NCBI GenBank assembly: GCA_017654855.1 | Contig: CM030337.1 | Span: 2,356,001 to 2,420,000, forward strand | Reading direction: 5' to 3' | Origin: Podospora anserina | Lineage: Eukaryota | DNA length: 64,000 nucleotides | Part shown: one piece after another, positions 10,329-54,568 of the stretch | Layout: every line of letters begins with the position of its first letter | Numbering within the stretch: position 1 is the first letter of the stretch | The notes under the pieces: model-generated | Database searches by the model: none | What the model was told of the DNA's origin: nothing | Seen by the model: only the letters and a program-made list of their open reading frames with translations | Made by a program: the position numbers and the translations under genes

Positions 10329-11823
10329 TTATATGTGGAATCATCTTTGTTACCATCCCCTTAATACATCCATCAAACAGACCATTATCACCTCAAGTCA
10401 GTCAAAGCTCCGAAAGAAATGCTCGAGACAGCAGCACCTTTTCAAATCATGTAGAATAAAGCCTGAAGAACGATCTAACGAACAGACAAGGTGTTGAAAA
10501 TATGGTTTGGGCGTGATGATCAAAGTTTATCGGAATAAAGGGATACGTCGTTCGGAAAACCTTATGGGCGCACATTTGAAGAGAATTTCTCGTACAAATA
10601 TTCCGCCCTTAGACGCAACATGTCGATCTTCTTTCTCACGGATGCATGACGTTAATCCACCCCTACCCGTTACCAAATCCGGCTTTCCTCAACCCATCCC
10701 CACCTTTCCCAAACGACACCCATATTTGGACAGCGATGCCATGGCCGAGCTCCAACTGGCATATCGCGCAACATTGGTTGTGTTTACACACTCGCAAATC
10801 TTGCATGGTTCTCTGAGTTTTTATTTTCTAGACTTGGATTTTGTGGACACAAAGCTTTACTTGACACACTCAGAAGTCAATATCACCAATGTCCACAGAA
10901 AGCAGACACATATCTCGCATTATCGTTGCTATCTTATTCACTTCTTCATCCAGCCAGCCTCATGCTGTGACATTTTATTTTCTTCTCAAATTTTTTACTG
11001 TGGCTATCGTGTAAGATATTCTTGTTTGAGTTTCTACACAGATTTACAAAGATTTTCCCCCCTTCTCCAGTCCCAGCTATCCGCAATTGGCATAGATTGC
11101 CACTCTCTAAATTTTGCTGAAGTCTGAGCTATAAACAAGAACTCCCAATTGACTTCAACTAGCCTTGATCTTGTCCTCAGCTTACTATCCCAAGATATTT
11201 CCTTTTCTCCCAACTCTCTTCACTTTCACGTCCCTAGCCTCAGTCTCAGCAAAGCTCCGTCGCCATGTCCTCAAATCTAAGAACCTCCCCACTGTCTTCC
11301 AGTAACAGAAGAAAGATGATATTGTCGGAATCCTCTGTTGTCTTTAAGGTAATAGTCATCAGGACGGCACCAAAACTGGCAGCTCTCCAGAGCTCTGGCA
11401 TCTTGGGAAAGGCCTGTAGCTGTCTGGACAAAGACAACCTCGCCGCGAGGATACAGAGATGACTACCACAGACCCTGGTCACAGTTTTATCTGCCTCGGT
11501 CTTTCTGTCTTTACTGATATCTGGAAGTCGGAGAGATAGACGCCGGGTGGTGAGCAGAAACCGAAAAGACTGCAGTGTAGAGTTGTAGGTCTCCACATCT
11601 CCACATAATGGCGTGGGAAGGTCGAAAATGTTCAGCACCAGCTCATCATATCATGACAGGACCATTCAACATCCATCTAATAATCGTGATTACGAGACGC
11701 ATACTTCCAGCAAGGTTTCTGCCAGAACGACAGGAAATCGACTGGGCATCATTGGAAAACCAAAACAATCAGCACTATGCTAGCAATACATGCCATGTGC
11801 TTTCAAAAAGACAAAAACTGTAT

Positions 11824-12930
11824 CTAATCAGAATTACCCGCAGATGGCACTCTTTGTTTGAGCGCAGCTAGCCTCTCCCGGGCCAGACGTTCCTCCTCAT
11901 ATCTCATCTCCTGCAACTTCCCAAGCATCTCGTCTTTCTATACGGCGTCAGCGATGTCCCAGGCTAGACCAGGTAGGTGCAGAAATAACATACAACTTTG
12001 ACGAGATTGGTGGGGTCATCCCCCGCATTCTGTGCCACTCCAATGAACATATGGCTTGTGATCCGGATCTGGAGTTCGAGACAGCGGAGTCGTTCGGTAA
12101 TATCGCGATGCAAATCCTCCGTCATTTTGGTGAGCTGGTTCGCGGTGAGATTAGCGTTGTGTGGCTGCAAGAACACTGAGTCAGTTTCTGGTTGTGGAAG
12201 TGGTATCAAGAGTACGGTGGGACGAATCAAAACGACCTAGCGTGAACATGAAGATAAAGGCAGACCCAAAAGGAACATCAACCTACAGAGGATTTGTGAT
12301 CATGAATACTGAGAGTTTGAACCCTGGCAGTTGTCTCAGCAACCCGGACATCAACAACCTGTCCTCCCGTCAGCGAAAGTGTACAAGACAACAAACTGGT
12401 AAGTCACATCGCAAATTGCCACCCATGCCCAGGCAGTGCTTGACGCTGACCCCGGCCGCTACGCCTTTCCAAGAACGCAAACAAACCCGAAACGACACCG
12501 GTTAAGCAACCCTCCCTGGAACTTTCAGAGAAGTTCGGGAGGAAAGGTCTACCCACTGATGTCGATCAGACATCACGCAAGCTAAGCCTGCTAGGGCCGG
12601 CGTGGACACCCCACTACCGTATGTGAGGTTAGGCCAGTTGAGTCACCTCGGAACTTTGTTGCTGAGGTTGGTCCCAGCAACCGCATTCAAGTCCTGCAAG
12701 CCCATGCCGGTATTGCGCTGAAAAAGCCACGCAAGGCGATGTGTCTTCGGCAACCGAGACGCTCAAACGAGACGCCATCGCAAAAGTGGCGGAGATCAAA
12801 GAGATGAGGAGAATGGAGAGATGATATTCCATATGAGGCTGGTTGGGCAAAGAACTGGGCAAGGGGCAAAGGGGATGCCGGGGGGAAGACTTACCACCTG
12901 GTCAGTGGTGCTGGGTTGGATCTCAGTCAT
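11824..12930 (-). CDS. Small coiled-coil protein A (96 aa, three exons, 760-nt first intron)
   Basis: Exons 12930-12895 (MTEIQPSTTDQV), 12134-11994 and 11937-11824. Intron 12894-12135 (GTAAGT...GCTAAT...CAG) and intron 11993-11938 (GTATGT...GCTGAC...TAG) are both phase 0 and give an open frame. Confidence 0.7.
12350..12896 (-). ncRNA. Candidate structured intronic RNA element, copy A
   Basis: Colinear homology to 53751-54279, hairpins with compensatory changes, and a long-range complement of the 5' splice site at 12397-12405. Confidence 0.6.
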
Positions 12931-13477
12931 TGCTGTTGACGGGAGGATGAAGTGATCGAAAAGATTGGCATGAAAATTTATAGAGATGGTGGGAATCTGG
13001 GATATGAAAGACCCAAGGTCGATTACTGGTGGACACCTGGGTTAAGAGTGAGAGGGAAGAATGGAAATGCAAAGGGATCGGTTTGGGGAGAAATTCGAAG
13101 AGGTGGCCTGAATATATATACCTGTGGGTTGTGTGTCTGTGCGCGCCTGCAAATCTCTCGGGGCAAGTAGCCATCACTGTTGGCTGGCTGTGATCCTTAT
13201 TCACTTGTGGGGGGGCCTGGGCAAGTGAATGTGTTGCAAGCTCAGAGAAACCTGGAGCAACAGTAGATGTGGGACCGAGTCATAGACATCTCAGTTTTCA
13301 GAGACCTCCGTCATATTCCATAGTTAAAAATGGGAAGGAAGGAGCAACGGACGGCCCCCACCTCACTGCAGCAACGGCATTTTTCTGATACTCACAGCAG
13401 CAAACCATTTGTTGTGATAAAGTTGGAACGACTCCCGTCCCAGTTTGCGACCTTTTCAAACAATACCGCCTGTCAAG

Positions 13478-13850
13478 ATGACCTCAAACCGCGGAAAAGC
13501 TGGTGCTGGAGAGAGAGGTGCCCTTTCAATAGCCGCCAGAACATTTCGGAAGCGCCGTGAAAAACGCGCTGCTGCTGCCGCCGTCGCCGCCGCCGCTGCT
13601 ACTACTTTCGACATTCACCCAGACTCCTGCCGATGCCGCTCCGACCCCCGCCCTCCAGAAAGCCCAAGAAAGTTCCGGGAAGAGATACACCAAGAGACAG
13701 CGTCAGGCCCGTGCGACCGAACGTCAGTTGAAGTACTTGGTGAAGAAAAACCGCGAGATGAAGGGCATGATCAAGAAGTTGGAGGCGAGGTTAGACAAGT
13801 TGGAAAAGGCGGCCACAATGCGCTTTGCGCGGTATGAGACGAACACTTAG
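13478..13850 (+). pseudogene. Frameshifted small basic/coiled-coil (bZIP-like) ORF
   Basis: MTSNRGKAG...RKRREKRAAAAA in one frame; TPADAAP...RQARATERQLKYLVKKNREMKGMIKKLEARLDKLEK in the next frame. The shift is near 13605 with no intron signal. Confidence 0.4.
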
Positions 13851-14286
13851 CAGACTAATACAGCCATTGGCTACATACTTGACTAGCAAGAAGAAGAGCA
13901 CCGAGGCAAATATAGGTCTGTGAGTCACTTTGCCCATGTTCCTTCGTTTTACGAACAGAGACCTAATGCATATGGCACAAATCACAGAAGGCGGGCAACT
14001 GGTTGAAATTCCAGACCAAAATCCCGTTGTGAGAAATAGATTGAAAACGATCTGGTGTTACTGAGGTGTAGGAAGGAAGAGGAAGGCATGGATGTTTATT
14101 TTGAACTTTTCGGTCCGATATCTTTGTAAAGTAGACATAGCTTCATCTGAAGTGTCTACAGCTTTTCAGATTTCAGTTTGACTACCCAGGTATCTACAAA
14201 GCCAAAACCCCCACCCAAGTACCGTCACTCAAGCGCCTACAAAATGATGGCCCTTATCCAAACTACCGGGCTTAAACCTAGCTTGC

Positions 14287-15249: not shown

Positions 15250-16968
15250 CTACTTCGGCTGACGGAACGGATGCGCCTCCGTATTAAAGACAAACTCATC
15301 AAGGCTGATGACGTCCGGAGGCGAAAACATCAAGTAAAAGTACTTGAGCGTCTCCGCCAAAAAAAAGCTCTCCATCGAGTCCAGCCTTCGTGTCTCGCCC
15401 TTCACAGTCACATCAGCAATAGCCGAGTACGCCAGCTTCGTCTCGGTGGACTTTATCACGCTCTCAAACATACGCCACGCCACCTCCCTCAGCTCCTCCT
15501 TGCCCGTCATGCGGTATAGCAAGAACACACTCTCGATGGCTTCCGGCCTCAGAATGTACCTCGGGTCGCGCGCGTTGGAGAAGCCCTTCTTCAAGCCCCG
15601 GGCACCCTCCTTCTCCCACTTCTCCTCGTCCCACACACACGGCTCCTTCACTGAGCCGCAGCGCACAAGGCCAAAGATCTCGGGCATCAAACCTGTCGGG
15701 AAAGCGTCGTACGCCCATCCACAACCACGCGCGATGCGCTCACCGATGTCGACGTGCTCTGGGAGGTTGAAGACCTTGCCCCCAAGCCCAAACATGCCAC
15801 CCACAAAACAGGACAAATGCTGGCTTTCGGGGACGTGATCAATCTTATCAGATCGCACAAACGCATCGCCCACAAAGAGGATATCGTGGGGATTGTCCTC
15901 GGCCGGTATCATGGGTCGGAAAACCAGGTGTTCCACCACAACCTCCATGGCGGCGCGGTGCATCTTTTCGTAGCGCGGTTCCTGGCCGCCAAGCAAAATG
16001 GCCATCTTGGGCAAGTACTCGTACAACGAGTCTGCAAGGGCGCCGAGCGTGAAGCCTGACTCGTGGTTTAGCGTCCCCTCGCGAAAGCTGATCAGCTTGG
16101 GCCACATGCCGGGCAGTTTGGACAAGGACTGGGTGCGCTCGAGGAGGTCGGTGACTCGGCTGACGGCATCGTAGAACTTGGGATCTCCGGTGAGCTGCGA
16201 CAGTCGCGTAAATTCGAGACTCAAGGAGGCCGGACAAGCAGAGGGATCGTTCGTTCCGGCAATTTGGGTGCCCCGCTTGGCGTCCTTGAAGTTGAGCCAG
16301 AAACCTGGCATACGGTTGGGTGTGTCAAAAGCCATGTAGAGCATGTTTCCCAGCTCTGTAGCCTTCTCCAAGAGGGCCCTTTCTCCGCTCAGGTCGTAGG
16401 CGCTGAGCAAGCCGCCGAGGTGTCGGATCGTGGTCTCGAACAGATTGGCGCTGGTGACGGTCGTGTCTGCCCAGTCCAGCTGGGCTGCTGCTGTTGCAGC
16501 GGACAGGAACTCATCGTGAAGGCCCATTATCCAGAGTGTATCCAGCGCGTCCACCAGTGTCGCAGCCCACCCGCCAAATGTCGTCTTGCCTTCTCCGCTA
16601 ACCGGCGCCAGTTCGTCACGAAGCCATGCGTGCTTCCTGTAGCTCTTCCAACTCTTCTCGAAGGCATTGCGCACTGCTTCCTGTCGCTTTACGGTCGTCG
16701 CATCGTGTGTATAATCGCGGAAATGGTGCTGGACAGGTGGGAACTGCTTCGGTGAGCTCGTTGGAAGAGAATGGATCAGCTTCGCAGGATATCGTTGGCG
16801 GACCGTGGTCCAGTCGAAGCTACTGGGTTTGAAGCGGATTTTGGCATCAGGCCTCGATGGCTGCGGTGGGGGGCGGATGGGGGAGTCAAATGGGCGGAAG
16901 AGGGCGACGACGAGGAGGAAGAAGACGACGGCGAAGAAGGTTCGCACGATGCGCCGGCCCTGGATCAT
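15250..16968 (-). CDS. Glycoside hydrolase family 47 alpha-1,2-mannosidase, type II membrane anchor, intronless
   Basis: N-terminal TM segment. Motifs YRKHAWLRDELAP, FGGWAATLVDALDTL, FETTIRHLGGLLSAY, GALADSLYEYLPK, YILRPEAIES, DSMESFFLAETLKYFYL and FNTEAHPF. Confidence 0.95.
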   Translation of the reverse strand: MIQGRRIVRTFFAVVFFLLVVALFRPFDSPIRPPPQPSRPDAKIRFKPSSFDWTTVRQRYPAKLIHSLPTSSPKQFPPVQHHFRDYTHDATTVKRQEAVRNAFEKSWKSYRKHAWLRDELAPVSGEGKTTFGGWAATLVDALDTLWIMGLHDEFLSAATAAAQLDWADTTVTSANLFETTIRHLGGLLSAYDLSGERALLEKATELGNMLYMAFDTPNRMPGFWLNFKDAKRGTQIAGTNDPSACPASLSLEFTRLSQLTGDPKFYDAVSRVTDLLERTQSLSKLPGMWPKLISFREGTLNHESGFTLGALADSLYEYLPKMAILLGGQEPRYEKMHRAAMEVVVEHLVFRPMIPAEDNPHDILFVGDAFVRSDKIDHVPESQHLSCFVGGMFGLGGKVFNLPEHVDIGERIARGCGWAYDAFPTGLMPEIFGLVRCGSVKEPCVWDEEKWEKEGARGLKKGFSNARDPRYILRPEAIESVFLLYRMTGKEELREVAWRMFESVIKSTETKLAYSAIADVTVKGETRRLDSMESFFLAETLKYFYLMFSPPDVISLDEFVFNTEAHPFRQPK

Positions 16969-17965
16969 TGTGTCGGGCGGTCCAGAGGTTTGTGGACGGG
17001 ATGGAATGGAAGTCAAGCCACAGTGCATAATTACCCCACGAAAGACGGGAGGTCAACTGTGGGTCCCCCCCAACTTCCCCAGCCGCCCAGCCACAGCAAC
17101 TGGCAGAGCTGACATGTGCCCGGAAGCTCGGAAGTACGGGGGATCTTCTGGGGATTGCGTCGGCGCTAAGGCGCATGAACCAGCCGACTCCGATCTCGGC
17201 ATCGAGGAGTGGACTCGGCCGTCGCTCTGCCGTGCGTCGGTGCAACGCATTGATAGGGAAGCCGGGTGGGCAGGTTGTGTCACTCATCCAACAGCTGCTG
17301 CTGAGAGCTTGACGGGGTAGCTCTGCCCGATGGATGTTTGGATTTACCATCTCTTTATCTCCCAGAGCCATTTCACCTGTGACTGTTGCAGCCCATGACC
17401 AGGAAGCGTTGTTAAAAAGCCGGCGAGCTGAACTTTGTGTGTATGTGATATCCCGCCTCTCTTCCACCCACGTTCTGGAGCCATTCGCTTTCGACGCGTT
17501 TGCTTTTGATACCGAATCACCAAGCCCCGACTGTGAAGGGGTTCGTTGTCTCTCTTCAATTTGATCACGTCTTTTTCTTCCTCCTCATTACTCATCTTCT
17601 CCCTCTTCCCTGCTCAACCGGACAAATAAATTCCACTCTGGATCCCGACAATTTTTTGGCACCTTTTTGGAAGCTTGGCAGACCCCGTCTCCGCAGCAAA
17701 AACCAGCATTATTTTTTTGTTTTCTTTCGCGGATAAAGGCGGGCTCTGTTTGTCACTCTCACAGCAGCCCCTCAGTCACTCTCTTCTTCGGTGTGTATGT
17801 GTTTCCAGACATCAATTGGCGTGCCACTCCTACAAGACCAGCTCACTCAAGTAGAATTGTGAGATGAAGGAGAGTGGAATAAACGGCGGCTTGGAAACTC
17901 TCAAACCGCCTCATCAGATTCTTGCAGTCGCAACTTCACCCCTCACCACCACAACCACCGCAATC

Positions 17966-21686: not shown

Positions 21687-21873
21687 TGTTGGGCTGGTGA
21701 CCTAGGAAAGTCACTGGCTGCGAAAATGAGGCCAAAATTGGCCAGAAAAAAATAGTAAACAAATTGGTATTACAGTAGTTGGTTGTTGGTTAAAAAGTAA
21801 ACAGTAAGAAAATCCAGCCCCAAGAGCAAACCGGTGTGGGTCTGGGAAAACCTGGGCCCTTTGGTGCCCCACA
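21687..21873 (-). repeat. 3' LTR (187 bp)
   Basis: Direct repeat of 27430-27616 with three differences seen. Confidence 0.95.
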
Positions 21874-24800
21874 CCCCCCCACAGACAGCACACCGCCGTC
21901 CAAAATGAAGCCATCGCTAATATCCTCCGAAGCCCAATATACGCCCAGATTCTTCCACTTCCTTTGACTCCTTTGCCCAATACCCTAGTAGCCTTTTTCC
22001 CATACAAATATACGTTCTCCTACATATTTTAAACCGGAAAATCTTATATTCCTAACAGCTATATAAACTTTACGTGTTTCTCCCTTTATAGTATCTTTAT
22101 AAATCTATCCGCCGGTATTTCCAACCCAGAGATATGTTAAATACCAAATCTTCCTTCCTTTACTTATTTACTTACCTACTTATACCGTATATCGATATAC
22201 CGGGTCCTAGCGATATTCTGAGGGTTTAGAACTGTGATTTCGGCGTTCTTACTATCGGTATATAGTATATATGGCCTTAGCTGTAGTATACTATAGTCTT
22301 CTAATATCTTTAACACCTACTACAGTAAATACCCTATAAGCGTCAGGTTAATAAATTCTACCTCCGTCGTACTTAGGGCGATAAAGGTTTGCTTCTTACT
22401 CTTTTATAATACTGGCCCACTAGCTACGAAAACGACGTAGCCGCTAGTGGAATATCTCTAAAGTAAAATATTTATATATAAAGTATTTACGAATCCTATA
22501 AGTTTTATATCTTTTATCGAAAACTCGGAGCCTCCTAGTATAATATATAGTTTCCTAGTAGTAATTAAGTACCGGAAAAAGTATTTTATTAACTCTAAGT
22601 AACGTAGTAAGGGCCTAAAATTACCCCCGTAAAAGCGGTTAACGGTAAAAGTAATGTCGGGCCAAGTACCGGTAAATAACTAGTTTAACGTACCGGTTTT
22701 CCGAATATATTCCTTCACTTCTATAATTATTTTCTCCTATATAAAAGGAAGTTTTAGCTTAGCTAATTACGGTATAGTTACGCCGGTTATATTTTTATAG
22801 CCGAACTTTTCGAGTAAAGCGTTAATATAAGTTACTTAAGATAAGTAAATTTATTTCTTCCCGCAATTCTTTATAATATTAAAACCTAAAAACCTTTTCG
22901 GCTCGCTTAGTTTTTTAATACTATACTTACTCTTTAACCCGGTAGTAATATTTTTAATAATTTTTATTATAAGTATTAATATAAATAGATTATTTACGTA
23001 TAAAACTATTAAGGTACTTATCTTTTTATAACGGAATAAATAAAAGTTTAATAAAAGGGTATCGAAACTTAGTTTAATTATTATAAGTTTTATTATTTTA
23101 TATTAGTAAATAAGTAACTTCTTTAGGCCGTATAATACCCTTTTAAGCTAGTATATTTTATTTAATAATTTACTTAAGTTATTTAATAGTCGTACGTAGT
23201 ACTATACGATATTAAGGATTTTAATATTAAAAAATATTATTTTAAAGTCGTATTAAAAATATTTTTAATTATTTACGGTTATAATAGTTTAAAAGTATTT
23301 AATTATTACGCTATTTATAACGGTAGTATAAATATTCTATATAGCCTAAAAGTCTTTATTAAAAGTTATTATATATTACTTACTTTGCTTTAACTTTTAC
23401 TTTATTAATTTAAAGGTTTATTTTTTTATTATATATTTATTTATTCGGTAAAACGTTATAGCTTTTCGGCGTATTTATTAACTTATAAACGTTTTTTTTT
23501 AATAGGCCGGCGTTTTACTCCTTTATAGTAAATAATTAATATTTATAATAATTCTCGAATTTCTTTATTTACCGGTAATTTCTAAATATATAAAACTTAT
23601 TAATAATTTATAAAAGATAATCGATTTTAATTATAAATAAAGCGTAGGCTATTACTTTATATAATTATAAATTATTAAAATATATTATAAAAAAACTTTA
23701 ATAAAAGTATTTACTTTACTATAGTTTTTTATAAAAGTTTAATCCCTAATTTTTTATTATTACTCTATAAAACCGCTTTTAAACCGGCGAAAAAACTACC
23801 GCTTCCTTTATATAGCTTATATTAAATTCGAAATCGTCGTTAAAGTCTTTAACTAAGCTTTTTATATTTAAATTTAGTAACTTACTATTAATTTAATTAT
23901 TATTAAGCTCCCCTATAGCTTTACCTTCCTCCCCCCCTATTAACCTCGTAAGGGAAGTAAGCTTTTTTATAATAAAAAAGTTAATAGTATAAAGCGTTTA
24001 ATTATAATTTAGTAAAATAAATACCTCGGACCGTATATCCTTTATTTTTTCGGCGTTAAAAAAATCTTTTACGTTTAAAACTTTAAATAATAAAAATAAT
24101 ATTAATAATAATATAATTTTCGAAGTAAATAAAATAATTTATTTAAGGTCTTTAGCTTTCCCTATTTTAATTATTAAAGTACTTTACTATAAATCGGGCT
24201 TTAGTATAGTAATAAGTTTATTATCGAAAGTAACCTTCCTCCTTAAAAATATTATTTTATTAATAATAGTATTTTCTTTTTCGGCTATAATATTATTAGT
24301 AAAAACTATTTTATACTTAATATCTTTATATTTATCGTTATTAGGCTTATAAAAATCGTTTTTATTAAACTTTATAATATTAATTTTTATAATTTTATTA
24401 ATAATTAAGTTTTAAACTTAATATATTTTACTATATATATTTATATAATTAATAAACTTTTTTTTTTTTACCCTAATAATAAACTTATTTAAATTAACCC
24501 GGTAGGCCGGCTTAATATAGTAATACGCGTCGTAAAAGTATAAGCGTAAGTACCGAATATATAACTTCCGCTCGCCCTTAAATATATTAAGCTTTATAAT
24601 ATACTTTTCGTAAATATTAATATTTCTTTCGTTAACCCTCGAGGGTAATAAATTATTTACATAAACTATAAACTATATAATAAATAAAAATAATTTCTTT
24701 AATATTTTATAGATTAATATAATAGCCCTAATACGGTTAAGCGTAATCCTTACGGCCCTCTTTACCTTTTTATTTATTTACAGTAAGTAAGGTACGGTTT

Positions 24801-27429
24801 TAAAAATAGTAATACCTTCTTAGTCGGCCCAGGTAACTATACGGCTATCGTTAAAGGTTTTAAAGCCCTAAATAAATTCCGTACCGCTATTAAAGCCGAT
24901 AATACTAATTTTATACCCGGTTTAGTACGCGATTTTCGTCTCGAAATCCTTAACTTTATCGAATACTTACTTTTTCTTTATTATAAAGTTAATTTACTTA
25001 TAATTACTTTATATATTTATATATTAAATAAAATATTTATAATTTAAATATTTAAGGTTTTTATAAATAATAATATTAATATAAATAAAGTTAAATAGGT
25101 TATTAATTTACGAAAAGATTAATAAACTTAATTAATTTATTATTTTTATTATTATATAAAGCTCGTAAAAAAAGTTATTACCGATAAGCTTAATACCTAC
25201 CTATATATAAGTTTTATAAATATCGTTCTTATTAATATATATTAAGTAATAATATATTACCCGGTAATTAATAAATATTATTATAACTTTAATAAAAATT
25301 TTTATTAAAAATATTTTACTAAAATTAATATTAAGTATTATATTTATTTAATATATATTATTATTCCTAATTAATTTATATATTACTTATTTAATACCTT
25401 TAAGGATTAAATTATAACTTTTTTAGTCCTAAAAAATACTTTTATTAAGTAACTTATCCGCCGATATTAAATTAACGGGCGCTTATAAATAATATATCGC
25501 TTCCTTAAACTTTAAAGTAATAACCTAATTACTTAAAAAGGTAAATTATAACGCTACAGTACTCTAATAACTATATTTTATAATATTTCTTAACGACGAA
25601 AGGAACCTCTTTTCCTTCCCTTTAGGTAGTAAATAAAGTTTAATAAATTACTTTAATTTATTAAATATAAAATCTATATATCCGGAGTCGTAATATATAT
25701 AATTTTTAAATACTTTAACGGCTTATTAAATTTTAAAAATATTTATTAAGGAAAGTATTACTTTTAAGGGCCAAAACGAAAATCTAATTAATTATTATTA
25801 TAGTAAGTAAGGAATAATATATTAACGAAGTTATTAAATAGTATTAAAATATTATAAATAAATTAATCCTTCGAAAATCTAATATTAGTAATACTATTAG
25901 TATAGCCTTAAAAAATCTTTATTAATAAGCTAATACTTTACCGCTTTTCTTACCTATCCACTTATACCTTTTCCCTATACTCCTAATCTTTTAAAGCTTT
26001 ATTAAAATTATATTACTAATAGACTTTACTTTTCGGGTAATAACGATTATAATTTATATAATATTAATTATTTTTCTTTAAACTTTTAATATATTAATCG
26101 TATTTCTTTATTAAGATTAATAACATAATAAATAAAAGTATAATTACGGCTAGGGTTTTAATAATTTTAATAGTAATTTTAAAGTAAATTAATATAGTTT
26201 TTTTTATAACGGCTTTAACGTTATACTCCTAATAAAAAAGCGACTAGGTTATAGTACCGTCTTTTATTTTCCTTACTAACCGATCGTATAAATCGGGGTA
26301 CGTAGTTTTAATATTATTTAAGGTAATCCAAAAGTAAATTACGTAACCAATCTTAATTTCTATTATATTAAAACGATAGTGAAGGACCTTAAACTAATTA
26401 AAATAAATTTAAAATAAAGCGAAATTAATATACTTAAAAGTAAAATACTCCTTTAAAAATATATTAATAATATCGAAAGTACTATATTATAAGGCTTAAA
26501 TAACTTTTTAATATAAACTATAAATATTAATACTATCGGCCTTTTAACCTAAATTAAAAATTTATTATCGGATCTCGGGCTTTTTAACGGAAACTATTAT
26601 TAGATTTTAAATATTTAGATTATTAATACGCTATTGGTCGAAGGTAAGTATCTTTTTTTCCGTTAATAATTATATATTAACTTTAATATAGTCCTCTAAA
26701 CTATAATATATAAAGGATTAAGTTAATTAAAATTCTTAACCGGAAAAATCGGTTTTTAAGTTTAAAGCTAATAAAATTTAAAAGGTTCGTTACTTAACCG
26801 TAACGACGGTATTAATATTCCCTATAACTTTTATAAATTCTAAAAACTAAACTATAATAACGTTAATACTAATTATTTTAAAAGAAAAACTAATTAAAGA
26901 AAAGTCGTAAAAAAGATACTATAAAAAAAACGTTAAAAGAAAAATTTAAAGAAAGGCGTTACTTAACTTTATAACCGTTAATAGTAGGTTAAATTAATTT
27001 AAGTAAAGGGCGAGATACTTACTTTGCTATCGGTCTCCTAATAAGGCAGGATAGAGTTCTCGACTGCTACTGGAAAATAGTAACTTCTTAATTAAAAGGT
27101 TATAAAAATAATAGAATTAAAGAAACTTAATTAGGAAAAGGTTAGTACCGTAAACTATACTCTTATTAGTAAGGGGTGGTCGGTCGCTTTAACTCTTCGT
27201 TAAAATAAGGGTTAGGGTTAAAACCAGGCTTCCGTTGATTAGGAAGTTAGTTAACTCTCTTAACGCCTCTAAAATCGCCGTCGAAAGATTTAATTATATA
27301 ATATTAGCCTAACAAAGGTCGAAAAGTCGTAAGGTCCGGTGTGGTATTCGGCTTTGCGAGGTCGGGTTGTCGACGAGGGCGTCGACTTCGGTTTACTTAG
27401 TAATTTAAGCGTTAAAAAAGCTTATAACC

Positions 27430-27616
27430 TGTTAGGCTAGTGACCTAGGAAAGTCACTGGCTGCGAAAATGAGGCCAAAATTGGCTAGAAAAAAATAGTA
27501 AACAAATTGGTATTACAGTAGTTGGTTGTTGGTTAAAAAGTAAACAGTAAGAAAATCCAGCCCCAAGAGCAAACCGGTGTGGGTCTGGGAAAACCTGGGC
27601 CCTTTGGTGCCCCACA
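27430..27616 (-). repeat. 5' LTR (187 bp)
   Basis: Direct repeat of 21687-21873. Confidence 0.95.
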
Positions 27617-27717
27617 CCTTTTTTAGTATGTGTCAACAACAACGCTCTCACTCGTACAACAATTGTGGAAAACGCCGTTTCCGGAATCTTTAGATATTTG
27701 CGCGCAAGTCAAGTGGG

Positions 27718-29320
27718 TTAGTTGACTGCCTCAGTTACCTTCTTGGAAGGTCTAACCACACGCCCACGGCGAGTGACCCTCTGGGAGCTAGTCTCTGATG
27801 ACATCGTTGAAGCCATCGCCAAGACGGTATTAGGCTCCTGCCTTTCAGTTGTGGTGTTGACGGTGGGCGCAGCCTTCTTGGTACGCTTGGGTGTTGACTC
27901 TGAGGCGATCATGAGACCGGCCCTCTTTCTTGGAGGGACCCTCAGAGTGACTCTGGGCTCTTCAGTCTCAGGCTCCTCAAGACCATTTCCATCTTCCTTG
28001 CCACTATTCCCAACGGTCTCATTATCACGACCGGTCTAGACCGGAGGCAGAAAGCCAGTGTCAAGGAAGTAGAAGCCATCCTAAAGATCGCCATCGTCTT
28101 CAGATTCTGGTTCCATCTCCCACTGCGAGAGGCGGCGCCTGACCGAGGGAGGGAGACGGGGATTACTCCCTTTAACTGGACCTGGCTTCTTCTTCTTGGT
28201 GATCTTCCCAGTCACCTTCTTGCGGTTGACGGCTTCGGTGATCATTTTGTTTTGTGATCTTGGAGGTCCTGGCAATATTTTTCTTCTTTTTCTTAGTAGT
28301 GTCGAGATACCGTGGGGATGACAACTACTCCCGTGGGAAGTCCGAGCTTCTTGTTACTCGGCCGCCCCTTCAGCTTGGTAGTCATCTTGGGATTCTTGAT
28401 GCGCAGGTAAGGATCATCCTCTCCCTATAAAAACAGTATCAGAAAGATTCTCATTGAAGCAACTATCATCAAAAGACTTACCAAAGGCTGTTGAAGATCC
28501 CAGTGATGATGTATATCACTGAGACTGAGAGTCTCCTTCGAAATTCGATCGGCGATGACATGACGACAAGGAACGCCCAGCTGCAAGGATACCGTACAGT
28601 CTGCATTGCAATCCCCAAGTGGTCTCTTTGCAGGTCAGTTGTCTCTGGGGATATTACCCTGGTAGTGGCGATACTCATCCTGGATGAGGAGACGTCCCTT
28701 AAGCAATATATTCCTCGGCAGTTCACCAAGATACTCTTTTTCAAGAAATTCGTGGCGAACGCGAGTCTCATTGTTAGTTAACTTGCTGGTGAAGATGCTG
28801 AACTGCTCCTTCACCATTCTTTGATGGCGCGAATGAAGCTAGCGAGGTCGCCTCGACCGTTAATGAGGTGGCTTTTGATCGCGTGATTGGTTGATTCTGT
28901 TGTTGAAGTGACTCTTCCACCGAAGTTTCGATATCGCTTGGTGTAACAATGAGCCCACTGCTCGCGGAGGGGAATCCGCTGGTCCTGTATTTAGGGAAGG
29001 GTCCTCTGCTGGTCATGGAAATATTGAGACAGCTGTATCCAGGCCTTCCAAAACGCGCTCTGAGTCTGGGAGTAGAGGACCGACTTGAAGAAGACTATAA
29101 AGCTATGGGGATCCTTCTCGATAGTGACCGAGTGAGCATCTATATCAACATCTTCGCCACGGCGAAGGTTATCGAGGAATAACTTTTCCCGGGCAGTAAG
29201 ATTGGCAGCAGATTCCTAATCTGCATCAACATGTTGCTCTTCATCAGCCTCAACGGTGTTGGTGTTTCTTCTGGGCTTGGCATTGAAGAAGATATTCTTG
29301 ATGATGTGAAATATACAGAT
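27718..29320 (-). pseudogene. Mutator-like (MULE) transposase relic, 5'-truncated
   Basis: Hand translation gives CIFHIIKN (CxxH), WAHCYTKRYRNFGGRVTSTTESTNHAIKSHL (catalytic E region), SWIM-like CNADCTVSLQLGVPCRH, an intron at about 28426-28481, then DPYLRIKNPK..KGRP. Several in-frame stops. Confidence 0.85.
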
Positions 29321-29457
29321 CCCACCCATCACCCCCTCTGGTCCCTTTGACAATGGAGAGCCACCAACCTGCGGGCTTTTGAAGGAGCTTAGCACGGGCG
29401 CGCTGAGACCCCCTTCTCGAGGGCATGCACTTATTACTTGCTACACAATCACATATA

Positions 29458-31319
29458 ACGTACATTATCAGTGAGTCGTGCATATCAGTGGGTCGCGCAC
29501 TCCCTAGCGCGACGCGTCCTCATTGCACTTTGCATCGAATTTTTCTACAATCCAATATGCCTTCTATTTTAAAGGAAGCGAGGGTAATCTTAGCCCTCGA
29601 AGCTCTCTAAAAGGACGAAAAATTAAGCCTCAGAGCCGCAGCTATGCTTTATAATATACCACCATCAACCCTCCGCGACCGACGCGCTGGCCGGCCTGCA
29701 CGACGCGATACTACGCCCGGTACAAAGAAGCTCACTCAATCAGAAGAGGAGGCTATTATCCAATACATTATTGAGCTATATACGCGAGCTTTTCCACCCA
29801 GATTACGTGGTGTGGAAGATATGGCCAACCAACTGCTACGCGTACGCGATGCGCCCCCTATCGGCAAGCTCTAGGTATATCGATTTATTAAATGCTAGCT
29901 AGAGCTCTATACGCGTTTTATACGTAAATACGACTATTAGAGGGCCAAGTGCGAGGATCCAAAGGTTATTAGCGAGTGGTTCGCGCTTATACGGAACACT
30001 AAAGCTAAGTACGGTATTATAGATAACGATATTTATAACTTCGACGAGATTGGGTTTATAATAGGTATTATTTTCGCGGGTATAGTAATTACGACCTCGG
30101 ACGGCCTTAATAAAGCGAAACTAGTTTAGCCTAGTAACCGCGAATAGGTAATAATAATTTAAAAAGTTAATACCCTCGGTTAGGCTATCTTTCTTTTTAT
30201 TATTTTAGCCGCGTAATATTACTTTACTAATTAGTATACCGAGTATAATTTATTATCTACCTAGCGTATCGCAACTACCGATAATAACTAGACTATTAAT
30301 CCGGTAGGTTTAGATTGGATTAAGTACTTCGATTACTATACGGCGCCCCGGATAAAGGGCAAATACCGGTTATTAATCCTCGACGGTTATAAAAGTTATT
30401 ACTCGACCGAATTTAAGCGTTACTGTTAGTAAAATAATATTATTACGCTCTATATACCTCTATATTCTTTATACTACCTCTAACTACTCGATATCGGCTG
30501 CTTTGGGCCATTAAAGCAGGCGTACGGCCGCCAGATCGAGGACTTAATGCGTATATATATTAACTACGTAAGTAAGTTCGAGTTCCTCTGTGCCTTCCGC
30601 GAGGCTTTCTTCGCCTTTATAACGGAGAAGAATATATAGGGTAGCTTTGCGGGTACTGGCCTTATACTATACGATCTAGAGAGGGTACTTTCTAAGCTAG
30701 ATATAAAGCTTCGTACGCCAATACCCCCATCCTTAAGGCCGGGCACGGCACTCCCTTAGCTCTCCCAAACACCACACAACCCTCGAGAAGCTACCTCACA
30801 GTCAAAGCTTATTAAAACTCGGATATCAAACCACCAGGGTAGCTCTCCAACATCTATGTTGGCTACTGTGGATCGATTAGCTAAAGGTACGATGACTGTA
30901 ATGCACGAGGTGGCTCTTCTACGTATGGAGCTCTCGGCACTGCGAAAGGCCAATGAGGCACTTAGTAAGAGACGGAGAGCCAAAAAAACACGTGTGAGGC
31001 TTGGAGGGTCACTTGCCGTACAAGAGGCACAGGATCTACTGGATCAGAAGGCTGTGGGTGAGCAGGTAATCCAGGAAAATCGATAAAGTGGTGGTGGTAC
31101 AGGGGGGTCTCGTACGAAGACTCAGTGCTGTGGTATATGCGGCAAGCCTGGCCATAATGCACGCACTTGCCAGGAGGCTGCAGAATCATCTGATTCAGCT
31201 GTTTCTGATGTAATTGTAGTTAATTCCTAATGTTGGTGTGTTATAATCGAGGGTAATTGTAGTAGGGTGGTAGAGAGTGCGCGACCCACTGATATGCACG
31301 ACTCACTGATAATGTACGT
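29458..31319 (+). mobile_element. Fot1/pogo (Tc1-mariner) DNA transposon 1, RIP-mutated
   Basis: Perfect 45-bp TIRs (29458-29502 / 31275-31319) and TA on both sides; 1862 bp. Transposase relic from ATG 29557 with HTH (YNIPPSTLRDRRAG), YNFDE, LILDG and a C-terminal CGICGKPGHNARTC knuckle. Confidence 0.95.
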
Positions 31320-31332
31320 TACTAACCTTTTA

Positions 31333-33212
31333 ACGTACATTATAAGCGAGTGCACTATATAAGCGAGTGCATTACTTTTTAAGCGACGTACTATCCTTCC
31401 ACCCAACATCGACTTTTTCTACATAACCCAATATGCCTTCTACTTTAAAGGAAGCCAGGGTGATCTTAGCCCTCAAAGCTCTTGAAAAAGATAAAAATCT
31501 TAGCCTTCGAGCCGCAAGAAAGATCTATAACGTCCACTATACGACTCTCTTACAACGACGCGCTAGCCGGCCTACACGACGCGATATTACGCCCAAATCG
31601 AAGAAGCTTACTTAATCCGAAGAGGATACTATTGTTCAATACATTATTAAGCTATATACGCGAGCTTTTCCACTAAGATTACGTGGTGTGGAAGATATAG
31701 CTAACTAACTATTACGCGTATGCGACGCGCCCCCTATTAGTAAACTCTGGGTATATAACTTCGTTAAACGCTAGTTACAGCTCCGTACGCGTTTTACGCG
31801 TAAATACGATTATTAGAGGGCTAAGTGCGAGGATCTAAAGGTTATTACCGAGTAGTTTACGCTTATACGGAATATTAAAGCTAAGTATAGTATTATAAAT
31901 AATAATATTTATAACTTCGACGAAATTAGGTTTATAATAAATATTATTTTCGTAGGTATAGTAATTACGACTTTAAACGGCTTTAGTAAGGCAAAACTAG
32001 TTTAGTTTAATAACCGCGAATAGGTAATAGTAATCTAAGAAGTTAATACCCTCGGTTAAACTATCCCTCTTTTTATTATTTTAGCCGTATAGTATTACTT
32101 TACTAATTAATATACCGAATATAATTTACCGTTTACTTAATATATTATAATTATTAATAATAAATAAATTATTAATCCGGTAAACTTAAATTAAATTAAG
32201 TACTTCGATTATTATATAGCGTTCCGTATAAAAAGTAAATACCGGTTATTAATCCTCGATAGCTATAAAAGTTATTACTTAATCGAATTTAAACGCTATT
32301 ACTAATAAAATAATATTATTACGCTCTATATACTTCTATACTCCTCCTACCTCCTCCAGCTACTCGATATTAACTACTTTAAGCTGCTAAAATAGGCGTA
32401 CGGTCGCTAAATCGAAAACTTAATACATATATATATTAACTATATAAGTAAACTCGAATTCCTCTATACCTTCCGCGAAGCCTTCTTCGTCTCTATAATA
32501 GAGAAGAATATATAGGGTAGCTTTACGGGCGCTAGCCTTATACCGTACGATTTAGAGAGGGTGCTTTTTAAGCTGGATATAAAGCTTCGTACGCTAATAC
32601 CTCTAAACTTACGGCCTAGCACTATATAACCTTGGGTCTCCCAGACACTATATAACCCTCGAAAAGCCAATTCACAATCAACGCTTATTAAGACTCGCAT
32701 TACTAACCATTAAAATAGCTCCCCGATTTTAATACTGGCTATAGTAGACCAGCTTGCTAAAGGTACAACGGCTATAATGTACCAGGTGGCTCTCCTTCGT
32801 GCAGAGGTCTCTTCGCTCCGTAAGGCCAATGAGGCACTAAGTAAGCGCCGGAGAGCTAAAAAAACACGTGTAAGGCTTGGAGGGTCACTTACTATACAAG
32901 AGGCACAGGATCTATTGGATCAGAAGGCCGTGGATAAGGAGGGAGTGCAAGAAACGTAGCCGGATAGTAGTAATGCAGGGGAGGCTCGTACGAAGGTTCA
33001 GTGCTGTAGTGTGTGCGGCAAGCCTGGCCATAATGCGCGCACTTGCCAGGAAGCTGCAGATGCCTCAGATTCAGCTGTTTCTGATGTAATTATAGTTAAT
33101 TCCTTGTGTTGATGTGGTGTAATTGAGGATAGTATTCGTAGGGTGGTGGAAAGTGGTGCACTCGCTTATATGGTGCACTCGCTTATATGGTGCACTCGCT
33201 TATAATGTACGT
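31333..33212 (+). mobile_element. Fot1/pogo DNA transposon 2 (related subfamily), RIP-mutated
   Basis: TIRs start acgtacattataagcgagtgca, TA on both sides; 1880 bp. Transposase relic from ATG 31433, colinear with element 1. Confidence 0.95.
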
Positions 33213-33752
33213 TATACACAAAGAAATGTGTTAGAGCCGGGTATATATCGGATAGTCACAACCGAGAGGGATTATGTAAGCTGTTTAGTCAATCAAACAG
33301 ACTCCAGTCTGCATGCTATATGACTCCCTACTCTAATAATGCACCTGAATCTCCTCCTTATAGCACGGCTTGATTCCCTCAACATTACCTTTGCTATCCT
33401 CTGCCCGTTATCCCGGGCAGCCGACTATGTTATGCTCCGTGGGTAACTTATCCAGACACTTGAAGCAAACAGGGCGGCCTGCAAGCCCACAAAGCGCAGG
33501 TGTCCGGGCAGTCATTAAATGGAAGCAACCTAGTATTCATTCTGTCAGCGCATTGCACTATATGTACATGATCTACTGGCTTAAACACCCTCAACCTTCG
33601 TACCTCAGGATCTGCCTCTCGGTACTGTCGCTCCTGACAACAGTCTCGTAGCGGTTTGCACATCAGGAAGATCGATCACTTCCCCGAACGTCATAGCGTA
33701 TGGTGCAAGCCTTGAACGAGAATGCCTGTCCCTAGTCATCATCTTCCAAAAC

Positions 33753-37480: not shown

Positions 37481-39512
37481 TCAAATAAACCCACTCTCCC
37501 TCAACATCTTGAGCGTCAACTCCGCCTTCAGCGTCGCCTCGTCTTTATACCCCTTTCCTTCCCCCGTGTCAATAAAATTCTCCCAAAACTTCAACCCCTC
37601 TATCCCTTCTTCCCGACAAAGCACCCCCTTTTCCTCCGCCATCTCCAACTCTTCCTCGGCAACACCAATACTCCACCCAAACCTCTCCGCCACATCTCTC
37701 GCAGTAACCCCCCTCCCAAACTCATGCCAATCCCACGACACCTCCTTCTCAGGAGGAAACTCATGCAAATCCTTCATCCAAGCCAGTAACGCCTTGATCG
37801 TCGACTCGTCCGTCCTATCCTTGCTCTGTACAACCTTCACCCCTGATTTAAACACCCTCAGCCTAACCGGCAACTCCAATTTCTCCCATAGATTCGCTGC
37901 TTTCTCGAAGTCTGCGGGACTAACCAGTTCGACTCCGCCTCGGGCTCGGTTGAACATAGCCCATAGATCCACAAGTGAGATTACTCCCCCGGCCTTTCTC
38001 AAGACCCCCCTCCTGTCATCCGTCAAAAACTCGGCCAACGTCCTTGCCAACTCACTCAGATACAAAGAGTCGCCCCCATTACTCCCAACAATATCCTTCG
38101 TGGTGATCAACCCAAGCTGACTTGCCGACTCGGCCAACAGAGCATTCTCACTCGCGGACGAGCCCCCAGCGCCTCTGACTTGTTTCGCGAAACTTTCCGC
38201 CAAAGCTACAATCTCCTTCGCCGATGCCATGAGCGCTTCCAAGTCTTCAAAGGCGTTTCCAATGACGAGCTCGTTATTCTTGCGCATCGCCTGAGTTTGC
38301 CGCTCCAGGCCGGCAATACCACCAATCTTGGGCCGTTGTCTCTCCGGTTCTGATGACCCGGCAGTACCAGAACCACCCTTGGTGCCATCGGAGCGAGATG
38401 ACTTGGGGATGGGGGGCGCGTTCTGGAGAAGCCATTTCCGCTGCGTCATGCAGCCTTTGAGACGTTCATAGAATATCTTCTCACCACCATGGCGGAAAGA
38501 AAGCTTGACGTTCTCTGGGCTTTCCAGGCCAACTGGGGCGGGGGCGGTGGAGTTGAGGAAGGGGCCGGGAGATTCCGTGTTGGTTCGGGGGCTCTGAGTG
38601 AGACTGGCTGGGATGTCGTGGGAGATGAGTGAGGCGCCGCATATTTCGCAGGATAGGAGAGAGGGATGGTTGGCAAAGGTACATCGTGGGCAGTGGAAGG
38701 AGGCATCGGGATCTGAACTTCGGGGGGGTGCTGTGAGGCCTGGAGACTGTGGTGAGGTTAGGTCAGAGATTTGCTTCGGCCTCACGGGTAGCGGCGTTTG
38801 GAGAGCCGGACTCGATGGTCCACGGGTTGATGCATTGCTGATTGCGGCTTTCAGAACATGGGTTAGGGTTGGCTTAATGCCGCATGCCAAACACGGAGGC
38901 AGAGGTGTATGAGCGTTGGCGGCAGTAGGGTCAAAGTTGGACGGGACAGGGTTTGAGAAGCTGCAGATGGTGCAAACCCAGGTGGCTGCGCTCACGGGCG
39001 TAGGCTCAACTGGTGATACCCGGAGGACGCCATCTTGGCGATGGGCTGGCGAGGAATTGCCGCTCCGGGAAGGAATAGAGACATGAGCTGGAGAGCGCTG
39101 TTGAAGGGGCGCACGCTTTGTTGCTTTGGGTATCAAGGTGATCTTTGGAGAGGACTTGAAAAAGCCAGCCTGAAGATAGCGATTAGCAAAGAGCTTCAAG
39201 CCGCAAATCCAACACGGCACTCACATAGAACTCATAGCGCTCCACATCTTTCAGGTCCAGCGCAACCGAGTACTTTCTTGGCTCTGCCTTGTCGACGTAG
39301 CATATCCGATGCGATGTCAAGTAAACCTGGCCATTTTGCTGATTCGGGAGTTTGAACTTGCTAGCGAAGGTCAGTCAGTGGTGGTGATAAGGACGATCCC
39401 AAGCAACTCACCCCTCATACAACCCCACATTGTCTTGCACGAAAAGCAGGTCTTCATCGGGCAGGTACGAAGGCCGCAGTGCGGTTGTCAAGTCGATGTG
39501 CTTTAAGAACAT
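37481..39512 (-). CDS. VPS36: ESCRT-II subunit Vps36 (split GLUE domain, two NZF zinc fingers, winged helix)
   Basis: MFLKHIDLTTALRPS..QDNVGLYEG; introns 39411-39361 and 39224-39170. Motifs YLTSHRICY, WVCTICSFSN, CPRCTFANHPSLLSCEICG, AFEDLEALMASAKE and EEKGVLCREEGIEGLKFWEN. Confidence 0.95.
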
Positions 39513-54462: not shown

Positions 54463-54510
54463 AAAGAATTGAAAGGGAAAAGAATTGAAAGGGAAAAGAA
54501 TTGAAAGAGG
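54463..54510. repeat. 16-bp tandem repeat x3 in the putative 5' UTR of gene B
   Basis: aaagaattgaaaggga twice, plus one imperfect copy. Confidence 0.85.
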
Positions 54511-54558
54511 AAATTTTTGCAAGAGAGAATTGAGGGGGAGATTGTGGGAGGGAGGAGT

Positions 54559-54568
54559 TGAATATATA
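54559..54568 (-). promoter_or_regulatory. Putative TATA box of gene B (TATATATTCA)
   Basis: The same tgaatatata string (plus strand) lies upstream of gene A at about 13109-13118. Both are followed on the coding strand by pyrimidine-rich leaders. Confidence 0.45.

Follow-up and report, generated by a model that had tools for sequence, protein, structure and literature searches.

What keeps an intron alike in two genes whose exons can no longer be aligned? This question is raised by a stretch of 64,000 nucleotides (nt) of Podospora anserina DNA (GenBank assembly GCA_017654855.1, contig CM030337.1, positions 2,356,001 to 2,420,000), hereafter the window, to which all coordinates refer. Two small genes of the minus strand, designated A (11824–12930) and B (53069–54304) and lying 41 kb apart, each have a long intron after a short ATG exon. 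Filamentous ascomycetes have very short introns. To our knowledge, few of their introns have a known function beyond the thiamine riboswitches and the hosted small nucleolar RNAs, and we know of hardly any documented conserved intronic cis-regulatory elements in short-intron filamentous fungi.

In this work we show that a half-kilobase intron is kept far better than the coding exons of the two small fast-evolving paralogues that carry it. An initial annotation of the locus had proposed a functional structured RNA, with an introner-like mobile intron as the main alternative. The functional conserved intron is retained from that interpretation, while the structured RNA is unsupported and the introner unlikely. 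The element is, in our judgement, probably an ancestral long intron that is paralogous, constrained, non-mobile and non-coding. More tentatively, and at somewhat less than even confidence, we propose that it acts at the RNA level in the control of splicing, through splice-site choice and intron retention.

The long intron is more conserved than the exons around it

For the comparison of genes A and B, each of their segments was aligned separately and evaluated against 100 shuffles per segment. Intron 1 aligned with 468 of 623 columns identical (z = 92), whereas exon 1, exon 2, intron 2, exon 3 and the 600 + 600 nt upstream each remained at z < 1 and the 400 nt downstream reached z = 2.8. Exons and flanks could thus not be aligned, and the earlier claim that the intron is more conserved than the exons was borne out.

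A blastn comparison of the two loci gave three colinear matches on the same strand: 12594–12903 with 53974–54286 (76.6% over 325 columns, E 7e-40), 12366–12448 with 53766–53847 (81% over 84 columns), and 13109–13165 with 54559–54612 (79% of 58 columns, E 2.5e-4), the last of which was absent from the initial annotation. The three exact blocks described there (12606–12623/53986–54003, 12640–12656/54018–54034 and 12835–12852/54217–54234) were recovered, each at those two sites and nowhere else in the window. A hand count of about 91 matches in the central 110 columns became 91 of 111 on recount.

The span given earlier (12350–12896 with 53751–54279) proved colinear, but its edges moved to 12350–12903 in A and 53748–54286 in B. 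In the alignment of A and B (a slash marks the splice site), the similarity sets in about 8 nt 5' of the donor (GACCAnnTG/GTAAGT) and stops about 9 nt past an internal acceptor (AG/GYTGTTGAT). It does not cover the whole long intron. It coincides with the complete 536-nt intron of a second isoform of gene A, and the last 194 nt (A) or 138 nt (B) of the long intron are made up of a 72-nt exon and a short intron.

The intron of gene A is spliced in two ways

Splicing of gene A was followed in contigs from sequencing runs guessed to be RNA. Four such runs share 0.05–0.13 of the window's words; for X17 and X18, which belong to the same study, the RNA nature is guessed apart from the spliced joints. 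Three RNA-like runs and the DNA run X1 were aligned to 11300–14000 at a likeness of at least 80%. Stretches left uncovered in the RNA-like runs, among them the intergenic bins and the greater part of the A intron interior, were excluded from the evidence.

An X17 contig joined 12164 to 12895, skipping 730 nt with GT..AG ends on the minus strand and with 101 and 108 letters on either side. An X18 contig joined 11937 to 11994 and so skipped a 56-nt intron, again with minus-strand GT..AG ends; the shorter side of the joint has 99 letters. In a second X18 contig of 133 nt, 12925–12893 was joined to 12356–12287 and then to 12164–12135. This contig removes 536 nt (12359–12894 after a shift of +2) and 122 nt (12165–12286) and keeps the 72-nt exon; the shorter sides of the two joints were 33 and 30 letters, respectively. 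All joints observed in gene A were GT..AG on the minus strand. The first intron of 762 nt annotated earlier (12135–12896) is therefore a real spliced intron, but it extends over 12165–12894 (730 nt).

Thus, the gene A intron is removed from RNA, and the 72-nt exon is either kept or skipped. This gives at least two in-frame isoforms, of 106 and 130 residues. The 72-nt exon is in frame and stop-free (24 codons), and P0006, the annotated orthologue of Podospora bellae-mahoneyi, has the same exon between the same neighbours. The parts of gene A are as follows.

12895–12930, minus strand: ATG exon of 12 codons (MTEIQPSTTDQV), from the translation, spliced to the downstream exons in RNA-like contigs
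12359–12894, minus strand: conserved intron of 536 nt, GTAAGT...CAG, from the X18 joint 12356 to 12893; P0006 joins the same exons, and the intron aligns to 53760–54277 of gene B
12287–12358, minus strand: alternative exon of 72 nt, present in X18 and skipped in X17, with 21 of 23 aligned residues identical in P0006; homologous to 53688–53759 of gene B
12165–12286, minus strand: intron of 122 nt after the 72-nt exon, from the X18 joint 12164 to 12287
11994–12164, minus strand: exon of 57 codons, in X17 and X18 contigs, with 96% and 91% identity to the Podospora models P0006 and P0007
11938–11993 and 11824–11937, minus strand: intron of 56 nt and last coding exon with the stop, from the X18 joint and the translation

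The 536-nt intron, the 72-nt exon and the 122-nt intron together make the 730-nt intron of the skipping isoform. The donor stands in the context CAGGTG/GTAAGT in gene A and CAAATG/GTAAGT in gene B. In fungal introns a branch site of the consensus CTRAY lies shortly before the acceptor; gene A has GCTGAC 11 nt 5' of its CAG acceptor. Both genes also have GACTTAC about 38 nt upstream of the acceptor. The long intron of gene A shows both marks of a U2-type spliceosomal intron, as it is removed from RNA and has GT..AG ends; for gene B the assignment is predicted from its sequence signals.

Gene B has the same predicted layout

The structure of gene B was predicted from its sequence and from homology to gene A and to P0004, a gene model of Cercophora samala. 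P0004 is itself a prediction and not a proof of splicing, and its first coding exon reads through part of the B-type intron.

54278–54304, minus strand: predicted ATG exon of 9 codons (MASFDQDQM), from sequence and translation
53760–54277, minus strand: conserved intron of 518 nt, GTAAGT...TTTAG, predicted by homology from the alignment to gene A; P0004 uses the same acceptor
53688–53759, minus strand: homologue of the 72-nt exon, from global alignment to 12287–12358 of gene A; 22 of 24 residues match P0004
53622–53687, minus strand: predicted intron of 66 nt with a GCAAGT donor, from a gap in the mapping of P0004 and from the sequence
53069–53621, minus strand: exon of 117 codons (53271–53621), intron of 67 nt (53204–53270) and last exon (53069–53203), from sequence and translation

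The 518-nt intron, the 72-nt stretch and the 66-nt intron add up to the 656-nt intron of the initial annotation (53622–54277), which is consistent with the sequence; it stays a prediction, and its conserved part is 518 nt. P0004 matches the main and last exons of gene B at 91 of 115 and 30 of 43 residues and is without the 67-nt intron.

At the branch position gene B has CTGGC (ACTGGC) instead of CTGAC, the branch A being replaced. Codon 4 of its 72-nt exon is an in-frame TAA, where C. samala P0004 has CAA (Gln). Gene B may depend on the downstream acceptor or may be in decay.

The interior of the B intron is carried by two RNA-like contigs of 584 and 652 nt. They match gene A over only 61–63 nt, and their loose ends read as B sequence. 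If colinear with the genome, contigs of these lengths would span from about 54483–54511 to about 53859–53899 and would cross the exon-1 donor of gene B unspliced.

The B ATG exon runs on through the unspliced intron for 128 codons (53918–54304, minus strand), and the identical open reading frame (ORF) occurs on 13 contigs of a protein collection. Since this frame is closed in gene A, it is probably a chance frame. As a query for further copies of the intron, the 128-residue product matched only itself (1 hit, 19 candidates).

A and B are old paralogues, and the intron is unlikely to be a mobile element

Genes A and B have a common layout: an exon of 9–12 codons, the long intron, the 72-nt exon, a short intron, an exon, an intron of 56–67 nt and a last exon. 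In a global DNA alignment the two 72-nt exons scored +1 against a null of -19.8 +/- 4.6, a score reached by 0 of 2000 shuffles; their identity is about 59%, and both of their indels are 3 nt long. A weak match follows at the start of the next exon. The proteins had been described as only faintly similar, and indeed only 17% of 69 residues were identical in the whole-protein comparison (shuffle p = 0.07), a value too weak to argue alone for or against homology.

A further conserved block lies upstream of the ATG exons.

13109–13154, minus strand: upstream block of gene A (ATTTGCAGGC...TATATATTCA), from blastn and local alignment to gene B
54559–54602, minus strand: upstream block of gene B, from local alignment and blastn against gene A

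The 46 nt of this block in A (13154–13109) aligned to 54602–54559 with a local score of 20.5 against a null of 10.8 +/- 1.2 (0 of 300 shuffles). The same layout, the homologous 72-nt exon and the homologous upstream block identify A and B as old paralogues; the gene is small, restricted to its lineage and fast-evolving.

The upstream block of gene A reads either as a promoter core with a TATA box or as the end of an upstream exon followed by a GTATAT donor. The P. bellae-mahoneyi model P0006 maps a coding exon to 13174–13121, followed by the GTATAT donor. An RNA-like contig of run X19 covers 12971–13137, including the TATA-like block (13109–13122). In view of this contig and the P0006 exon, the "TATA box" common to A and B may itself lie in transcribed sequence, and the long intron, taken here as the first of the gene, may be its second.

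The paralogy bears directly on the mobile-intron interpretation. According to it, an introner-like or other mobile intron, possibly similar to a miniature inverted-repeat transposable element with GGTAAGT and ACTTACC ends, inserted independently into two genes. Such an origin would agree with a similarity that coincides with a complete intron, with exons that are unalignable at first sight and with a 9-nt perfect inverted repeat involving the donor. The length also falls in the range described for introner-like elements (PMC3609843, PMC4457414). Only two copies were found, however. Self-comparison of the whole window revealed no third intron copy, and an nhmmer profile of the two copies gave one weak match in the window (10917–11100, plus strand, E 0.004, bias 17), which was judged compositional. 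In the DNA run X1, records of at least 80% likeness were limited to one A contig and one B contig, the latter over its best 63 nt; a filter may hide further records there. Two pattern scans of metagenome contigs for further intron copies returned 0 and 0, and of five ATG ORFs submitted to exact look-up in the same search four were absent and one was a singleton. Since only two copies were found in these searches, and since homology extends to the adjoining 72-nt exon and to the upstream block within a common exon–intron layout, insertion of an introner is disfavoured. There is also no visible target-site duplication, the predicted fold is not unusually stable, and the left arm of the inverted repeat lies 38 nt inside the conserved region and not at its end. 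We regard a mobile intron as highly improbable.

The database relatives of the B protein are few: itself, an ORF call at 88% (P0002/P0005) and the C. samala model at 79%. The A protein has two Podospora models as relatives, with 96% and 91% identity over the 57-residue exon. By these named proteins the window belongs to the Podospora anserina species complex or stands very close to it. Exon by exon, A shares 10 of 11, 21 of 23, 55 of 56 and 33 of 37 residues with P. bellae-mahoneyi. P0002 has many differences from B in exon 2, yet only 1 of 40 codons differs through intron 2 and the start of exon 3. These comparisons indicate that the exons change quickly even among close relatives. A Pfam search with the two main exons gave nothing above the cut-off (best Syntaxin, E 0.044, 14 bits against a cut-off of 26.7). 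In the ESM Atlas the look-alikes are ankyrin-like, with a value of 0.93 on only 139 features in common; Pfam did not confirm this lead.

A minus-strand frame at 11261–11416, about 400 nt 3' of the A stop, resembles the middle of the B main exon at 37% over 62 residues and shares the string TTEDSDNI with it (tblastn against 3.2 kb, E 0.004). This frame may be what is left of a third gene of the B type beside gene A.

The intron is patchily conserved and non-coding

Conservation within the intron is concentrated in three blocks (alignment columns 1–100, 201–300 and 461–530) of 75–85% identity, and the spacers between them are at 25–60%. In 17 windows of 30 columns the number of matches ranged from 10 to 28, so that identity is heterogeneous (chi-square 49.9, 16 degrees of freedom, p = 2e-5). 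Between the upstream block and the donor A and B cannot be aligned, nor can they in the short intron that follows the 72-nt exon, in intron 2 or in the flanks. As these non-coding parts are unalignable and the 72-nt exon is only about 59% identical, the background divergence of A and B is near saturation and the blocks stand above it.

The C. samala model gave a similar pattern against the B intron. In its central block 31 of 35 codons are kept, compared with 4 of 9 in the adjoining spacer (Fisher test, 0.010), and the stretch 5' of an internal GTCTGT donor keeps 19 of 22. For the blocks together the figure is 50 of 57, and for exons 2 and 3 it is 121 of 158 (two-sided p = 0.086). Thus, as a trend only, the intron blocks seem to be conserved across genera no less than the coding exons. 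The patchy identity and the recurrence of the same block and spacer pattern in C. samala fit purifying selection.

The same data speak on functionless ectopic gene conversion, by which about 0.55 kb would have been copied between the genes long after the duplication and would then have drifted to about 75% identity. The tract is of typical length, the genes lie 41 kb apart in the same orientation and the similarity is one colinear stretch. Drift, however, is uniform, whereas the identity here is heterogeneous, and the contrast between blocks and spacers recurs against C. samala. A separate upstream block is conserved beyond an unalignable 5' region, and the edges of the tract lie at splice sites. 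Gene conversion is for these reasons a very unlikely explanation.

The intron had been called non-coding, and this was upheld. Mismatches are spread evenly over the three phases, without codon periodicity. The alignment of A and B consists of 17 ungapped blocks with 41 gap columns, and its indels break the frame. In tblastx no frame was favoured on either strand, and the ORFs differ between the copies. A protein-coding reading of the intron was therefore rejected. Repeat-induced point mutation (RIP) was rejected as the cause of the divergence as well, as the substitutions comprise 85 transitions and 71 transversions over all classes, in line with the lack of a RIP-like pattern reported earlier.

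An unannotated transcript or gene on the plus strand was also considered, with CTG/GTAAGT at 12396–12404 and 53796–53804 as its consensus donor. This donor-like motif is conserved in both copies, and short ATG ORFs (MKIK..., MKAK...) end there. It needs no separate explanation, however, being the complement of the ACTTACC element discussed below. Moreover, neither a preferentially conserved frame nor codon periodicity was seen, and all observed joints are GT..AG on the minus strand. A plus-strand product is accordingly most improbable.

A structured RNA is not supported by most folding controls

The initial annotation proposed that the intron is a functional structured RNA. In its general form this means a riboswitch-like switch, an intron-hosted small RNA or a stable intron RNA with a conserved fold; in a more specific version, a long-range stem pairs the donor (UGGUAAGU) with ACUUACCA, a sequence resembling the 5' end of U1. 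The element concerned is the following.

12397–12405, minus strand: ACTTACCA as read on the gene strand, with the internal acceptor about 38 nt further 3'; a 9-nt inverted repeat, 100% complementary to the donor region 12888–12896, conserved in gene B

In the single folds of A and B and in their consensus fold, ACUUACCA, some 38 nt 5' of the internal acceptor, is paired with the donor region. This pairing extends in the consensus fold into a terminal stem, about 34 pairs long (columns 4–58 with 475–530), which occurs in both single folds and makes the first and third conserved blocks mutual partners. When alignment columns were shuffled, the fold on the gene strand reached z -2.45 (1 of 100 shuffles), which is marginal, compared with z -1.34 (11 of 100) on the other strand. 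The terminal duplex, an imperfect pairing of about 55 nt, was equalled by 2 of 200 shuffles in B, so that it beats 198 of them.

Meanwhile, the remaining controls were not favourable. The same duplex was equalled by 25 of 200 shuffles in A. The single-sequence fold energies are ordinary, with z -1.75 in A (8 of 100 shuffles as good) and z -0.77 in B (21 of 100). RNAalifold pair counts were discarded as circular, because the structure had been chosen on the same two sequences. Instead, the structure was taken from one copy and the effect of the other copy's substitutions was scored. The changed pairs that stayed paired numbered 32 of 70 against 30.0 expected and 31 of 80 against 31.0 expected (P 0.34 and 0.55), a test of low power with two sequences. 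Pair retention is thus at chance level, and the column shuffle is the only marginal signal. The structural distance from donor to branch site was 18 in A and 17 in B, compared with medians of 16 and 14 for shuffled interiors; 60 of 100 and 67 of 100 shuffles, respectively, were as short, so that this test is without discriminating power. By the duplex, changed-pair and distance controls, the pairing of ACTTACCA with the donor is not significant by itself.

ACTTAC is one base off the fungal branch-site consensus. Two splice signals may thus suffice to explain its complementarity to the donor, and the ACTTACCA element could be either a branch-site-like CTTAC or a donor-masking sequence.

The Rfam search gave 0 matches at gathering score in the 64-kb window. 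At E <= 10 the A copy had one match and the B copy three, of 12–23 bits against cut-offs of 45–90, and none was common to both copies. A C/D-box-like UGAUGU...CUGA in the A intron was not conserved in B as judged by eye, and it was set aside. With no Rfam family, ordinary fold energies and chance-level retention of pairs, the idea of a riboswitch or hosted non-coding RNA found no support; the structured-RNA hypothesis is unsupported rather than refuted, and we consider it clearly unlikely.

A related and similarly unlikely proposal, to which we give slightly more weight, is that the intron RNA itself is the conserved product, a self-contained module that predates the A/B duplication and extends across Podospora and Cercophora. 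Its own donor would be masked by ACUUACC, which is like the 5' end of U1, and it would serve as a splicing switch or a stable intronic RNA. If this is true, the host ORFs would be almost free to drift or to be replaced.

Splicing control and transcriptional control as candidate functions

The proposed course of events is as follows. An ancestral long spliceosomal intron (536 nt in A, 518 nt in B) would have been retained by both paralogues, and purifying selection would have preserved its three blocks, together with the 46-nt upstream block, as primary sequence, whereas the exons drifted until their DNA could no longer be aligned. The blocks would act in cis on their host genes by steering the choice of splice sites in the pre-mRNA. 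The consensus donor GTAAGT would compete with a conserved internal donor GTYTGT, and the conserved acceptor with the downstream one. The outcome would be the long form of the protein, the short form or an unproductive RNA that retains the intron.

Motifs resembling splice signals lie within the blocks: the donor, GG/GTYTGT, GACTTACCAG and the acceptor with its branch site. The internal donor GG/GTYTGT, about 120–135 nt before the conserved acceptor, is the donor of the C. samala model. A C/U-rich block after the donor and the ACTTACC element before the acceptor are likewise inside conserved blocks. A role in splicing is favoured because the conserved region is bounded by splice sites, contains an additional donor, a pyrimidine-rich block and an element that is branch-like or complementary to the donor, adjoins an alternative exon and is found unspliced in RNA-like contigs.

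The alternative that fits nearly as well, though we hold it to be somewhat doubtful, places the function in the DNA. In that case, the blocks are an intronic transcriptional enhancer or an internal promoter which, with the upstream block, gives both paralogues the same expression programme, and splicing is incidental. Short conserved islands amid indel-rich spacers are typical for cis-regulatory DNA, an additional island lies upstream of the ATG, and there is no strand-specific structural signal. Block 1 is C/T-rich, and C/T-rich tracts occur near start sites in promoters of filamentous fungi. The annotated coding sequence of C. samala begins inside the central block; this start, however, is an annotation and not a mapped transcript end. 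Against a DNA element, the conserved region begins and ends at splice sites. Judged from their lengths, the RNA-like contigs of the B intron could reach the upstream region, and a transcript start inside the intron is thus not required. Finally, intronic enhancers are little documented in fungi with introns averaging 79 nt, the mean given for Podospora anserina (PMC2441463).

Returning to splicing control, several points weigh against it. The same data fit a DNA-level enhancer equally well. The RNA runs are guessed as RNA, come from one study and consist of contigs only; in addition, the 30 letters of the 122-nt joint fall just under the 31-letter rule. For gene B, splicing is a prediction, the extent of the contigs is estimated from their lengths, carry-over of DNA may have contributed to them, and the gene itself may be changing or decaying. 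The case for constraint draws on two paralogues and the translated model of one relative, and the contrast between blocks and exons in C. samala is only a trend (p = 0.086).

Comparison with known intron systems

A keyword search of open-access text found no prior description of this intron element or of genes A and B.

At 518–536 nt the intron is several times longer than the 79-nt mean of Podospora anserina introns (PMC2441463). In Dothideomycete fungi, introner-like elements (ILEs) exceed regular introns in length and are spread over unrelated genes in hundreds of copies with stable predicted folds (PMC3609843, PMC4457414). The intron studied here resembles them in being several times the regular length, in recurring at a second locus and in a similarity bounded by splice sites. 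It differs from them in its two copies, paralogous host genes, homologous flanks, identity of about 75% and ordinary fold energies. The sister introns and stwintrons of the Hypoxylaceae are 93–207 nt long, occur in tens of copies at new positions, have inverted repeats of 45–55 nt and are often nested with a disrupted donor (PMC8469720). Like them, our intron belongs to a Sordariomycete, is similar between loci, has no Rfam family and no flanking duplications, and shows some complementarity of its ends. Unlike them, it is 518–536 nt long, is present in two copies at the same position of paralogues, has a perfect repeat of only 9 nt and has no split donor.

Among introns with a described function, the long zipper-stem introns of Saccharomyces cerevisiae, for example that of RPS17B (PMC2536676; bioRxiv 10.1101/2022.07.22.501175), are also long introns in an organism with short ones, with a predicted pairing between the region after the donor and that before the branch site. 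In our case, however, the stem includes the donor itself, the distance is no better than in shuffled sequences and compensatory changes give no support. In yeast ribosomal-protein paralogues such as RPL22A/B, introns mediate cross-regulation (PMC5755908, PMC4838235), and genes A and B are likewise a paralogue pair with introns as the proposed site of splicing control. The pattern of conservation is the reverse, as the yeast proteins are highly conserved and their introns divergent (PMC5755908), and the A and B proteins have no known or predicted RNA-binding activity. Conserved intronic elements also regulate poison or cassette exons through structures that conceal the branch site (PMC11162794). 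The likeness lies in a conserved intron beside a short alternative exon, which in gene B carries an in-frame stop; the difference is that a branch-concealing structure is unsupported here and that the exon of gene A is coding and not poisonous.

Genomic context

The neighbours of A and B comprise genes for a GH47 mannosidase (15250–17052), Vps36 (37481–39220), SAC3/GANP (40114–41448), a PX-PB1 protein (48355–49335) and a PIF1-like helicase (58563–60902). With such housekeeping neighbours, the two genes lie in a normal gene-rich chromosome arm and not in a repeat island.

Several repeat-related features were seen elsewhere in the window. About 0.9 kb 3' of gene B, a minus-strand frame of 501 residues (50659–52164) has CENP-B/ABP1 N-terminal (E 3e-24) and Tc5-transposase DNA-binding (1e-18) domains; it is either a remnant of a pogo/Tc5-type transposase or a domesticated CENP-B-like gene. 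Direct repeats of 189 bp (21687–21875 and 27430–27618, 98.4% identical, 5.7 kb apart) flank an AT-rich stretch. At 22000–28000 the GC content is 0.20–0.32, compared with 0.48 for the window, and there is no ORF of at least 180 residues; this stretch looks like a long-terminal-repeat element degraded by RIP. A tandem duplication (29533–31279 and 31407–33155) of about 1.75 kb has 80.6% identity, a GC content of about 0.41 and no long ORFs, and its units are bordered by inverted repeats of 41–51 nt with 97–98% identity (29456–29506 with 31271–31321; 31331–31371 with 33174–33214).

Implications

We infer that the element is a conserved intronic cis-regulatory sequence adjoining an alternative exon, and from the C. 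samala model it appears to be kept in a second genus, Cercophora. For surveys of intron gain, the locus is a caution: recurrence at two loci with unalignable exons mimics an introner, and old paralogy with constraint fits better here. For filamentous fungi, it offers a compact and genetically tractable case for the function of intronic sequence, which can be tested in a model species.

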